Origin: a virus
Lineage: Duplodnaviria > Heunggongvirae > Uroviricota > Caudoviricetes
Direction: 5' to 3' (one strand)
IMG/VR virus record: IMGVR_UViG_2695420643_000004
Location: 1-11,144 of that record
DNA: 11,144 nt
A program made the position numbers and the translations under genes. Shown in pieces: positions 726-3,996 of the stretch. The notes beneath the pieces are model-generated. The model was not told the origin of the DNA. It saw only the letters and a list, made by a program, of their open reading frames with translations, and ran no database searches. Each line of letters starts with the position of its first letter. The stretch's first letter is position 1.

Positions 726-728
726 ACG

Positions 729-1370
729 ATGAACCATGAAGAAATGAATCAGCGCATAAGTTGCCTGGAAAATGAAATCACTGAACTGAATAAAAAACTG
801 TCGGTGCTGATGGTTTCTGAAGATGAAAAAAAACGCCGCGATGAGCAGGAAGCAGCGTTTTACGATGATTGCATCAAAATTGCTCGCAGGACCTTTGCGA
901 AGATTTTGCAGGAAAAGTTTTTACCGACCGCATTGTCAGAAAAGTACTCCATTACAGTTAAAAGTGCCGGAGAGGAAGGCAATAAACGTTATTTTATTGC
1001 GTCTGCACCGGATAAAGACCAGGAATGGGGGGATAATCGGCCATCTTTTATTGTGACAAGCGATGACTGGAATATCACGATCCGTGAAGATGGAAAAGTA
1101 ACACCAGCATCGCACCAGCACAGTGAGGCGCTCATTGAATTTGCCATTGATTACCTGAAGAACAATAAAAAGCAGGGACTAATGAAGCGCATTGGTCGTT
1201 GCATGGGATATCTGCAGGTAGCTGCTGAGATTGAAGCGCTGGCCAGTGGTGCGGACAAGGATGCAGTTGTGCGGGAGGCTCTTCTTCGTGATTTTGATAA
1301 TCCGCCCTTTAAAAAAGTGCCGGCTTACTGGTTTCATCCAGGACTGACTTATCTTAAAGGACGTATATAA
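729..1370 (+). CDS. Hypothetical protein, 213 aa, soluble, N-terminal coiled-coil-like segment; inserted between holin and endolysin
   Basis: ATG is 3 nt after the holin stop with GGGGAGAG 7 nt upstream, so it is probably translationally coupled to S. Visibly AT-rich compared with flanking phage genes. No TM segment or signal peptide, and no family recognised. Confidence 0.7.
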   Translation: MNHEEMNQRISCLENEITELNKKLSVLMVSEDEKKRRDEQEAAFYDDCIKIARRTFAKILQEKFLPTALSEKYSITVKSAGEEGNKRYFIASAPDKDQEWGDNRPSFIVTSDDWNITIREDGKVTPASHQHSEALIEFAIDYLKNNKKQGLMKRIGRCMGYLQVAAEIEALASGADKDAVVREALLRDFDNPPFKKVPAYWFHPGLTYLKGRI

Positions 1371-1379
1371 GCTGGCTCG

Positions 1380-1736
1380 TTATCTGTTGCCGGATAATCG
1401 ACGGAAGATGCGTTCTTTTTGTGATTTGGCGTAATGATGATCCCACTCACATTCAAGGTAGTTTAATTCTTCGTTTAACCAGTCATTTATATTGTCTTTC
1501 AGACGTAGAAGCATGGCTGGTGTTAATATTCTGGACATAATGTCGAGAGTTGGTGGTGTGAGGTGTCCATACGGCTCAGCCTGAATGGATTTTACTGCTT
1601 CGTGGTTTTGCTGAATGAGTTTAAGGAATGCTGATTTAAATTGTTCATTCATGGCCTGCATGCAGGCGGTATATTTATGTTCATCGTTATACATTGCTAA
1701 ATCCTCGACGGGAATTGTCAGATATATTTCAGCCAT
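1380..1736 (-). CDS. Hypothetical protein, 118 aa from ATG at 1736 (122 aa if the GTG at 1748 is used); convergent with the preceding gene
   Basis: Only long ORF in the AT-rich 1371-1822 interval, where random ORFs this long are uncommon. Its stop is 9 bp from the stop of the 729-1370 gene. The RBS is weak and no family is recognised. Confidence 0.45.
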   Translation of the reverse strand: MAEIYLTIPVEDLAMYNDEHKYTACMQAMNEQFKSAFLKLIQQNHEAVKSIQAEPYGHLTPPTLDIMSRILTPAMLLRLKDNINDWLNEELNYLECEWDHHYAKSQKERIFRRLSGNR

Positions 1737-1822
1737 CAGGTAAAACACCAGTGCCCACCACTGGCGGGCTGAAGACTTAACATATCCAGGGATTCGGAAC
1801 CGATAAATCCTGATAAATATCC

Positions 1823-2706: not shown

Positions 2707-2838
2707 ATGTCAGACAAGCTCATAACGCTGGCGAAGATCCTCTGTGTAATCGTCGGCATTTCATTTTCACTAATGCTGGTTGCTCTTAGGCTGGATGATG
2801 TTGTCTTCGTCGGGGATGCTGGGGTGAGGGGGATATGA
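2707..2838 (+). CDS. Small hypothetical membrane peptide, 43 aa ([43 protein letters not shown])
   Basis: ATG at 2707 with GAGGA upstream; one predicted TM helix; its stop overlaps the Rz start (ATATGA). Not in the ORF track because it is short. Confidence 0.4.
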
Positions 2839-3302
2839 ACCGTGTTCTGTGTGTGGTGATTATTGTCCTGCTGGTAGCCTGTGGTGCGCTTGGTCTGGGG
2901 CTGAATCATTACCGCGATAACGCCATCACCTACAAAGCGCAGCGCGATAAAAAAGTCAGAGAGCTGGAGCTGGCGAACGCGACAATTACTGATATGCAGA
3001 TACGCCAGCGTGATGTCGCTGCGCTCGATGCAAAATACTCGAAGGAATTAGCCGATGCGAGAGCTGAAAATGAAACTCTGCGTGCTGATGTTGCCGCTGG
3101 TCGTAAGCGCCTGCGGATCAACGCCACCTGCCCCGGTACCGTGCGTGAAGCCACCGGCACCTCCGGCGTGGATAATGCAACCGGCCCCCGACTGGCAGAC
3201 ACCGCTGAACGGGATTATTTCATCCTCAGAGAACGGTTGATGATGATGCAGAAGCAGCTGGAAGGGGCGCAGGAATATATCCGCACTCAGTGTATTAACT
3301 AG
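2835..3302 (+). CDS. Rz: Rz i-spanin (inner-membrane spanin subunit), 155 aa
   Basis: N-terminal TM anchor and a coiled-coil periplasmic domain with the conserved [15 protein letters not shown]...[12 protein letters not shown] motif close to lambda Rz; nested Rz1 in the +1 frame. Confidence 0.9.
3055..3240 (+). CDS. Rz1: Rz1 o-spanin (outer-membrane lipoprotein), embedded within Rz in the +1 frame
   Basis: Lipobox LVVSAC followed by a proline-rich mature region ([32 protein letters not shown]) resembling lambda Rz1. Start could be the ATG at 3055 or 3070. Confidence 0.85.
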
Positions 3303-3325
3303 TATTTTTGTTATCCGGAGAATGC

Positions 3326-3550
3326 ATGAAGAAATTACTGGTAACCGTAAAGCCTTTTCAGGGAACAATTCCGTTCCGTGTTTTGCAGCGTGGTCGTGTT
3401 CTTATTGAAGGTTCGTTCAGTGGTAAATGTACGCAATTACACTCCCGGACCTTTCAGGTGAATGCCACGAATGAAGAGCTAACCGTGGAGTGTACGATGA
3501 ATGCCGCTAAATGCCGCATGGCATCCGCTGCATTACAGCCAGTGTGTTGA
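3326..3550 (+). CDS. Hypothetical small protein, 74 aa, four Cys, no signal peptide; in the Rz-to-cos moron slot
   Basis: ATG at 3326 preceded by CCGGAGAA. The ORF-track start at 3308 is TTG. Not Bor-like (no lipoprotein signal). Possible relationship to small DLP12-region proteins such as YbcW is unverified. Confidence 0.45.
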   Translation: MKKLLVTVKPFQGTIPFRVLQRGRVLIEGSFSGKCTQLHSRTFQVNATNEELTVECTMNAAKCRMASAALQPVC

Positions 3551-3809
3551 GCGACCTTATTATCCATGCGCGGTATTGTCGCCGTATTCCCGTATTAACA
3601 GAGACCGCAGCCCGACAGGGAGACTCCTCTGCGCGAGTGTGCGGGGATAATCAAAAACGATACACACCGGGGTTTACCGCGTTAACGGAGCGCGGCGTTG
3701 TCCCCTCATGGTCGCTGGTCCGGTGCGATGGTGGAAGAAACTGGATTTTGTTGCAACTGATAATCATTATTGTTTTCGCGGGTCCTTTCCGGCGATCCGG
3801 GCCGTTACG

Positions 3810-3821
3810 GGGCGGCGACCT
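3810..3821. other. cosN: cosN cohesive-end sequence GGGCGGCGACCT (12-nt lambda-type overhang, terminase nicking site)
   Basis: Exact match to the lambda left cohesive end as recalled. Flanks (CGGGCCGTTACG upstream, CGCGGGTTTTCGCTATTTATGAAAATTTTCCGG downstream) match recalled lambda genome ends. Confidence 0.85.
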
Positions 3822-3860
3822 CGCGGGTTTTCGCTATTTATGAAAATTTTCCGGGGAAAA

Positions 3861-3969
3861 TCATGTCGGTACTTCTCGAACATAACTATTTGTTTTTTCT
3901 AATATCGAATCCGTAAAGGTCCGACATGAAAACGCCTGAAAAAGTCATTTTCGGGCACTTTCATGTCGG
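3861..3969. promoter_or_regulatory. cosB: cosB: three putative small-terminase R elements (TCATGTCGG at 3861-3869 forward, 3920-3928 inverted, 3961-3969 forward) with an A/T-rich putative IHF site (about 3881-3912) between the first and second
   Basis: Three copies of one 9-mer in alternating orientation within 110 bp between cosN and nu1, mirroring the lambda R3-I1-R2-R1 layout. The motif differs from the lambda R element as I recall it (CGTTTCC core). Confidence 0.6.
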
Positions 3970-3996
3970 ATCCTGTATTTGTTGTGAGACTGTTTC

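Follow-up and report, generated by a model that had tools for sequence, protein, structure and literature searches.

Three prophage systems, Tab, TERi and Tha, are the closest described counterparts of the locus analysed here, and in each of them loss of the antidote is incompatible with keeping the defence gene, whereas an antidote on its own does no harm (bioRxiv 10.1101/2025.02.27.640495; PMC10884400). The defence protein of each is small and made in the lysogen, and its antidote appears on induction. In the Pseudomonas phage JBD26, Tab is an 83-aa moron protein unlike anything known, encoded inside the late operon and made constitutively from the prophage, and anti-Tab is a late-operon counter-defence protein that is made only on induction (PMC10884400); according to the TERi authors, the two genes lie on opposite strands (bioRxiv 10.1101/2025.02.27.640495). 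TerI (ORF65) of the Listeria phage phi10403S is encoded on the opposite strand within the lytic operon under its own promoter, its antidote being a product of the lytic operon, and the TERi gene set (TerI with anti-TerI1,2) is conserved as a unit among prophages (bioRxiv 10.1101/2025.02.27.640495). In the S. aureus phage 80alpha, Tha and Ith form an antisense pair, termed a 'noncontiguous operon', in which convergent transcription sets an exclusive expression that switches with the life cycle, the antidote coming from the antisense gene and being released when the cI operon shuts off (PMC11087260). Here we describe a layout of this kind in the late region of an E. coli lambdoid prophage, represented by the 11,144-nt stretch of IMG/VR record IMGVR_UViG_2695420643_000004 that was analysed as a whole (hereafter the window). 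Two open reading frames (ORFs) lie there between the pinholin gene S and the endolysin gene R: ORF1 (729-1370, + strand), whose conserved C-terminal domain we call C2, and ORF2 (1380-1694, - strand), which converges on it.

The likeness to these systems is one of layout, with ORF1 in the late operon and coupled to S, and ORF2 on the opposite strand. Tab has no sequence or fold relation to ORF2 and lies between terS and terL, whereas ORF2 lies in the lysis cassette; for Tab both the target (the tape-measure protein) and the phenotype have been demonstrated, whereas the roles of ORF1 and ORF2 are proposed from sequence. TERi differs in lying in the early lytic module, in overlapping its partner gene and in having a Gram-positive host, and shares no homology with either ORF. 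In Tha/Ith the polarity is reversed, since there the cI operon of lysogeny carries the defence gene and it is the antidote that is antisense, and Tha has a HEPN effector domain that ORF2 does not. Two further comparators lie in E. coli and its lambdoid phages. YdfR of the K-12 Qin prophage (essQ-ydfR-rrrQ), which carries the DUF1327 domain, occupies the same S-R slot as ORF1, and the coiled-coil and tail modules are common to its family and ORF1; however, K-12 YdfR (103 aa) has no C2 domain and ORF1 no DUF1327 domain. On the K-12 map ydfR presumably has no antisense partner. The lambdoid moron bor resembles ORF2 in being antisense in the late region, in its deviant base composition and in its presence in only some relatives, but it encodes an outer-membrane lipoprotein with a known role in serum resistance, whereas the ORF2 cargo is cytoplasmic, is paired with a gene on the sense strand and can be swapped for other genes behind a common leader. 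The definition of a moron used below reportedly goes back to work by Hendrix and Juhala.

The interval between the pinholin and endolysin genes

Gene S encodes an S21-type pinholin (510-725, + strand; PF04971, E=1e-32; holin families phrog_9876/phrog_20; dual-start motif MYQM) and bounds the interval on the left; gene R encodes a signal-anchor-release (SAR)-type endolysin, a lysozyme with a hydrophobic N-terminus (1823-2356, + strand; PF00959, E=2.7e-24), and bounds it on the right. The 1,097 bp between them (726-1822) agree with the gap of about 1.1 kb reported in the initial annotation. Guanine-cytosine (GC) content is 43% across the interval against about 54%, and 44% in ORF1 and 40% in ORF2 against 54-55% in S, R and Rz, which bears out the earlier remark that both ORFs are richer in AT than the phage backbone; GC at third codon positions (GC3) is likewise 0.41-0.43 in the two ORFs and 0.58-0.69 in S, R and Rz. 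Chromosomal prophages of E. coli O157:H7 and other strains match a 1,131-bp stretch across the interval at 100% identity, and the whole module is found in about 38 of 5,426 complete E. coli genomes, with fragments in 2,213.

We surveyed 70 IMG/VR loci that have a near-identical S21-type holin and a detectable downstream endolysin. The slot is occupied in 57 of these and S and R are adjacent in the other 13, so that the close pair taken as normal in the initial annotation is seen in phages of the 933W and VT2-Sakai types, while in the group a filled slot is the common state and the interval is no unusual single insertion. A DUF1327-only (YdfR-like) gene of ~400 bp is present in about 28 of the 70, with variants of 600-1,300 bp making up the remainder. 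Empty, single-gene and two-gene alleles all occur among phages whose S and R are >90% identical, and deposited phages encoding Shiga toxin (Stx) include both kinds, the slot being empty in the 933W and VT2-Sakai type and filled in others. By these comparisons the S-R interval is a recurrent polymorphic slot, mostly filled by a YdfR/DUF1327 mosaic gene family. The module is present or absent in near-identical cassettes, has a low GC content and has no match to known lysis proteins, which argues for accessory cargo, as first suggested, rather than core lysis machinery. Very probably, then, ORF1 and ORF2 are a real two-gene accessory (moron) module in a polymorphic slot of S21/R21-type cassettes. 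Patchy presence among relatives and deviant base composition, two marks of morons, are both seen; as for the promoter and terminator of a moron, there is no clear promoter, and the hairpin at 1746-1769 lies upstream of ORF2 and not downstream. In the literature on DUF1327, ydfR and the genes lying between the holin and endolysin of Stx phages, we found no functional account of the slot other than the YdfR-RNase E study discussed below.

Occupancy of the slot also affects the translation of R. In the window, the ATG of ORF1 lies 3 nt past the S stop codon, behind the Shine-Dalgarno sequence GGGGAGAG (715-722, + strand, read from the sequence), which is embedded in the 3' end of S; the initial description of a 213-aa soluble protein coupled to the holin stop behind a strong ribosome-binding site is thus confirmed. 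In an empty-slot allele (locus L078), the ATG of R lies 4 nt past the S stop codon behind the same GGGGAGAG, so ORF1 sits in the translationally coupled position that R holds in empty-slot phages. This comparison with a relative in which S and R are adjacent, a check proposed in the initial annotation, sets the insertion boundaries at the S stop codon on the left and the R start codon on the right. The R gene of occupied slots has a leader (CCGATAAATCCTGATAAATATCCATG, within 1795-1830) with no recognisable Shine-Dalgarno sequence and is no longer coupled to S, and occupancy must therefore alter R translation. Empty and occupied alleles also diverge over the first ~6 codons of R (MSRKLRYG versus MNTKIKYG; L078 4205-4225).

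A change in the S:R stoichiometry, which must follow from ORF1 being coupled to S and R being placed on a leader without a Shine-Dalgarno sequence, is what would be expected if the module regulated lysis, with a cytoplasmic ORF1 tuning pinholin triggering or SAR-endolysin release and ORF2 acting as a modulator; the module also lies inside or beside a lysis cassette in every context found. We nevertheless consider a lysis-timing role unlikely. Neither protein has a transmembrane segment (hydropathy over 19 residues peaks at 0.76 in ORF1 and at 0.94 in ORF2, compared with 1.83 in S), and Pfam, PHROG and PDB-sequence profile searches gave no holin-family, antiholin or lysis-regulator similarity for either. 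The pair accompanies three unrelated holin and endolysin types, which speaks against a specific partner in the cassette, and many close relatives lyse without the module. T4 RIII, P1 LydB and Mu gp23/gp25 are the lysis regulators that we take to be the relevant comparators.

ORF1 (phrog_1085, E=2.1e-101) encodes a slightly acidic protein (pI 6.15) and has 189 homologues, all from E. coli. Three alleles with 12-22% DNA divergence and no indels give a ratio of non-synonymous to synonymous substitution rates (dN/dS) of 0.25-0.31, by which ORF1 is a real gene under purifying selection. The AlphaFold2 (AF2) model of the protein is poor, with a predicted local distance difference test (pLDDT) score of 49, and hence unfit for fold searching. 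Three modules can be delimited on the + strand: B (aa 1-65, 729-923), a coiled coil with predicted helices at 3-27 and 31-64; C1 (aa 66-105, 924-1043), an optional middle piece that is present or absent by allele; and C2 (aa 106-213, 1044-1367), the conserved domain that co-occurs with ORF2 and carries the motif LGRxMGLLQvAAEIE...DNPPFK..P..W..PG..YL. All three are common to ORF1 and to DUF1327-headed slot proteins, in mosaic combinations. Alignments place module B C-terminal of a DUF1327 head in other alleles; gp05 of Stx2 phage 86 is DUF1327+C1+C2, the slot protein of PhiR5_1 is DUF1327+B, and the DUF1327 model matches these two proteins at E=3.7e-45 and E=6.6e-40, respectively. C2 proteins at a greater distance, found in Salmonella and metagenomes, combine C2 with a coiled coil and a remote DUF1327-like head. 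ORF1 gave no match to DUF1327 (PF07041) at E<=0.1 and, judging by its modules, is a 'headless' member of the extended YdfR/DUF1327 mosaic set.

The initial statement that neither product resembles a recognisable family holds for Pfam, NCBIfam and PADLOC-DB v2, in which ORF1 has no match, and fails in that both ORFs fall into PHROG families, phrog_1085 and phrog_1853, of unknown function, and in that ORF1 is built of modules found with DUF1327/YdfR. Profile searches of ORF1 and C2 against PDB sequences returned no significant match. Among 1.84 billion representative proteins, an exhaustive profile search recovered no more than 44 clusters, of which about a dozen have C2, and the C2 profile hit only Escherichia and Shigella among GTDB representative genomes; on these searches the C2 family is tiny and confined to enterobacterial phages.

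The kinship with YdfR raises the alternative that ORF1 acts on host RNA metabolism, protecting or reshaping late transcripts, with ORF2 unrelated or a modulator. The modules that ORF1 shares with DUF1327/YdfR-family proteins of the same slot are in its favour, and YdfR binds the N-terminal domain (the catalytic half) of RNase E and co-purifies RNA (PMC13232886). However, the RNase E-binding surface consists of YdfR residues 1-72, the very DUF1327 head that is missing from ORF1, and few transcripts changed on YdfR overproduction (PMC13232886). We regard such a function for ORF1 as highly improbable.

The convergent C2/ORF2 pair and its leader

ORF2 (phrog_1853, E=8.4e-47) encodes a cytoplasmic protein antisense to the late operon, and its stop codon faces that of ORF1 across 9 bp (1371-1379, read from the sequence), a gap too small to hold a terminator. 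Convergence and spacing are as first annotated, but the length is not: all homologues, those of Salmonella included, begin at the internal ATG at 1694, and the extension to the upstream ATG at 1736 is not conserved, that ATG being CTG in several alleles and the extension being frame-shifted or stop-containing in others, so that ORF2 has 104 aa rather than 118. A ribosome-binding site, GAGGA (1706-1702), lies 7 nt 5' of the internal ATG in an ORF2-specific leader (1695-1745, - strand) that is conserved among ORF2-type alleles. The Prokaryotic Genome Annotation Pipeline (PGAP) gives the non-conserved 118-aa start in the RefSeq entry of E. coli O157:H7 strain 7.1_Anguil (L223 12681-13037). In that prophage copy the lysozyme, Rz, portal and tape measure genes are frameshifted pseudogenes, and ORF1 and ORF2 are intact.

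The same three alleles, again with no indels, give dN/dS values of 0.27-0.47 for ORF2, and among the six frames of its interval the annotated one has the lowest ratio and is the sole one without internal stops. Together with conservation down to 38% identity, the dN/dS values and the absence of indels rule out a spurious antisense ORF. The values for ORF1 and ORF2 are more relaxed than those for S (0.05-0.08) and across S and R (0.05-0.10), as expected for accessory or arms-race genes. The ORF2 product is confidently predicted to be a five-helix bundle, and the predicted structure has no match to a known fold. Searches of ORF2 against Pfam and NCBIfam found no family, and PADLOC-DB v2 gave only a chance-level match to Cas6b (E=0.015); the other members of the families likewise had no meaningful match in these three collections. 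A weak, colinear hit to an RpiR-type helix-turn-helix protein (3iwf, E=0.2) was considered and disappeared with a broader alignment. The family reaches Salmonella (49% identity) and metagenomes (38%); its profile had no match among GTDB representative genomes.

Outside the E. coli cassettes, ORF2 homologues keep the same company. Salmonella prophages have the homologue in the stretch from Q/HicAB to an HP1-type holin, where it opposes late transcription and converges on a 260-aa gene; on metagenomic contigs, it is convergent with a 125-aa gene and adjoins a GH108 endolysin. Both partner genes contain C2 (BLASTP E=1e-23 for the Salmonella 260-aa gene and E=5e-16 for the metagenomic 125-aa gene; hhalign probability 98.9%), which is 44% and 41% identical to that of the window, respectively. 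The Salmonella partner genes fall into the same two PHROGs of unknown function and have no meaningful PADLOC match. Across the E. coli, Salmonella and metagenomic settings the stop codons of the pair are 6-21 bp apart, and the orientation is invariant in all loci, with the C2 gene sense to the late operon and ORF2 antisense. On this evidence, a C2-domain gene facing ORF2 is a mobile unit that is kept together among cassettes with unrelated holins and endolysins. Counted by contigs, many of which are near-identical and not independent, a C2 gene is adjacent at 45 of 48 ORF2 loci in IMG/VR and at all 7 Salmonella and metagenomic loci, whereas ORF2 is present at only 20 of 78 C2-anchored loci, the other C2 loci running straight into R. 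With moderate confidence, we conclude that ORF1 and ORF2 work together.

A doubtful but by no means negligible alternative is that the two are independent morons that share a hotspot and co-occur through physical linkage. Alleles with C2 only are common (58 of the 78 loci; slots of 596-603 bp), loci with ORF2 only exist (L136-L138), and many forward genes of this highly mosaic slot are recombinant; at locus L105, C2 is 97% and ORF2 only 73% identical to the window, so recombination does separate them. Against this, the pair has stayed adjacent, convergent and in the same orientation at 38-49% identity across unrelated holins and endolysins, also upstream of the holin; mere linkage should have been broken in so mosaic a region, and it leaves the asymmetry between ORF2 and C2 unexplained.

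A toxin-antitoxin or addiction module would also be a pair of small-protein genes in a prophage, and HicAB adjoins the pair in Salmonella. However, ORF1 and ORF2 are convergent and not co-transcribed, each gene occurs alone at many loci, and neither resembles a toxin or antitoxin family, which makes this explanation scarcely credible; the type II version is ruled out by the gene orientation and the independent occurrence. In one Salmonella prophage (L084 6601-7238), the HicA/HicB toxin-antitoxin pair itself opposes late transcription and is flanked by the Q antiterminator and the C2/ORF2 pair, so that this region is a small accessory-gene island.

By sequence comparison, the R-proximal position is occupied by any of at least six unrelated antisense genes, ORF2 among them. 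The others, revA (86 aa), revB (105 aa), revC (91 aa), revD (90 aa) and revE (210 aa), show no relationship to ORF2 or among themselves, and none has a known function; the idea that they are distant ORF2 homologues was rejected, there being no blastp match and an hhalign probability of <=1%. Upstream of ORF2, on the - strand, is a 'platform' of ~80 bp (1746-1822) that abuts R and in which the promoter and 5' leader of the cargo presumably reside. It is conserved before ORF2, revA, revB, revC and revE, and the homology ends exactly at the outer edge of a stem-loop, CCAGTG-N5-CACTGG (1746-1769, - strand; alternative pairing GCCCGCC/GGTGGGC), that lies at the inner edge of the shared leader. Scanning IMG/VR with the platform motif returned 47 loci, all abutting R, with revE (20), revA (10), ORF2 (8) and revC (7) as cargo. 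At least four of the unrelated genes share an identical leader, and exchangeable cargo of this sort is what marks a hotspot of accessory or defence genes.

Some of these cargo loci have features of their own. At L015 (2284-2833), a window-like ORF1 is followed by a forward 75-aa mini-DUF1327-like ORF that is convergent with revB, and revB has a weak partial PADLOC match to the candidate defence system PDC-S51 (E=1.3e-5). The gene revE (L060 4454-5086 and L023 912-1544), which is found with the exact platform motif more often than any other cargo, has no PHROG, Pfam or PADLOC match; it overlaps a forward coiled-coil gene that it appears to have truncated, and the read-through tail of the forward ORF at revE loci is probably not real.

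Conservation of about 80 bp next to R whatever the cargo suggests another explanation, namely that the leader and hairpin act in cis and the cargo is secondary: antisense transcription could block leaky read-through into the SAR endolysin in lysogens, or the element could stabilise or process R mRNA. The ORF2-only (L136) and revD (L029) alleles do have hairpins of other sequence at the same position, and transcripts must collide where no terminator separates the convergent genes. However, a near-identical hairpin precedes ORF2 homologues in Salmonella, where the neighbour is the holin, and at locus L088, where the neighbour is again not R, which indicates that the hairpin belongs to the cargo side and not to R. 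Purifying selection acts on the cargo ORFs, whose protein sequences stay conserved down to 38% identity, empty-slot phages do without the element, and the hairpin folds only modestly better than shuffled sequences (z = -1.3 to -3.0). A cis-acting role as the main function is, in our assessment, quite unlikely. Rfam gave no match in the leader/hairpin region. The hairpin was also considered as a general intrinsic terminator and rejected, since a U-run follows it only in ORF2-type alleles and it lies upstream of the gene.

Defence and self-immunity as a proposed reading of the pair

The reading that we favour, tentatively and with rather less than even confidence, is that ORF2 is a defence or superinfection-exclusion protein expressed in the lysogen, a possibility already raised in the initial annotation, and that ORF1, expressed late, confers self-immunity to it through the C2 domain. 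Seven observations lead to it. First, the asymmetric co-occurrence of ORF2 and C2 has the same form as the rule stated above for Tab, TerI and Tha. Second, the convergent arrangement of the pair has been kept in three settings that are deeply diverged. Third, its invariant strand layout matches that of TerI/anti-TerI and Tha/Ith and the layout that the TERi authors attribute to Tab/Tai. Fourth, ORF2 is small and of no known fold or family, like the 83-aa Tab and the 65-aa TerI. Fifth, both genes are low in GC, are maintained by purifying selection and come and go among near-identical cassettes. Sixth, the antisense cargo is exchangeable behind its leader. Seventh, selection on both genes is more relaxed than on S and R.

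In mechanistic terms, ORF1 would be made only from the Q-antiterminated late transcript, through translational coupling to the pinholin gene, while ORF2, read from the opposite strand behind its leader and hairpin, need not rely on the late operon and could be made, for instance, in the lysogen. ORF2 would then act on a late step of incoming phages. As no terminator separates the convergent genes, late transcription should collide with that of ORF2 and yield RNA complementary to the ORF2 mRNA; convergent transcription and this antisense RNA may thus silence ORF2 when ORF1 is produced, and the C2 domain would neutralise the ORF2 protein once the cell's own prophage enters lytic growth. Orphan C2 genes would, on the same reasoning, be escape factors. 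Expression of ORF2 in lysogeny, its interaction with C2 and its anti-phage activity are all steps that we infer.

Several points weigh against this proposal. The weakest link of the argument is the missing sigma-70 promoter: consensus scans found none for ORF2, the best candidate being a weak -35/-10 pair (TTTATC-17-TATGTT) that agrees with the consensus at 7 of 12 positions. Neither ORF1 nor ORF2 has a defence signal in PADLOC or Pfam. At the three loci L136-L138, the ORF2 homologue stands without any C2 gene, which breaks the rule that the defence gene is never found without its antidote, unless those phages are insensitive. The other reverse cargo genes face forward genes without C2, and each of them would need an antidote module of its own. 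The DUF1327 head of related slot proteins binds the RNase E N-terminal domain and possibly RNA (PMC13232886), which hints that the function of the forward family may be unrelated to ORF2. Finally, given the dependence among contigs noted above, linkage alone could explain much of the co-occurrence.

A broader version of the defence reading, which we think unlikely, extends it from the pair to the slot. The S-R interval, that of many Stx and O157 prophages included, would be a hotspot built as an expression platform, unrecognised so far, in which the shared leader drives interchangeable anti-phage genes (ORF2 and five or more unrelated others) expressed in the lysogen, each with a cognate antidote module at the 3' end of the forward gene (C2 in the case of ORF2), and ORF2/C2 would act on assembly, packaging or lysis as the late step.

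Surroundings of the slot and significance

The tail end of a DUF6645 gene lies upstream of the pinholin gene, and between the two, ~40 bp 5' of the pinholin start, is a terminator-like hairpin with a 12-bp stem followed by a T-run (443-471). Downstream of R, the interval before Rz (2357-2834) is a second variable one. Within it, CCCCGTTTG/CAAGCGGGG at about 2452-2476 make a strong terminator-like hairpin with TTTTGTGTTT after it, and there are also two tiny hydrophobic ORFs. One of these is listed as 86 aa (2434-2694, phrog_1115) and probably starts, judging by a ribosome-binding site GGGAGA, at the ATG at 2512 (60 aa); the other is of 43 aa (2707-2838, phrog_4906). Stx2 phage 86 has the anti-repressor gene ant in place of these ORFs. 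Rz/Rz1 (2835-3302 and 3055-3240) are followed by Nu1, the large terminase subunit, portal and head genes. Between Rz and nu1 (3303-3996) are about 700 bp without a confidently assigned gene, with a GC content of 43-46% at both ends; bor, which adjoins Rz in Stx2 phage 86, is absent from the ORF list of the window at this position.

Prophages are already known to have accessory-gene hotspots and to carry defence genes that are paired with an antidote gene on the other strand. What appears to be undescribed is the pairing of the C2 and ORF2 families, its place inside a lysis cassette, and a shared leader with exchangeable cargo. Even without the defence idea, an uncharacterised gene family fills the S-R interval of about four-fifths of the sampled S21-type cassettes, R is translated differently when the slot is occupied, and the pair is a conserved mobile unit. 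The module is relevant to the biology of Stx and O157 prophages. If the defence reading is true, ORF2 and C2 would be a new prophage defence and self-immunity family, and the slot an exchangeable-cargo hotspot in the lysis cassette of lambdoid prophages of pathogenic E. coli, Stx-converting ones included. The design of Tab, TERi and Tha, with defence on one strand and the antidote in the lytic operon, would then extend to enterobacterial lambdoid phages, and the module would bear on how prophages compete, on which phages can carry stx genes from strain to strain, and on the host range of phages used in therapy.

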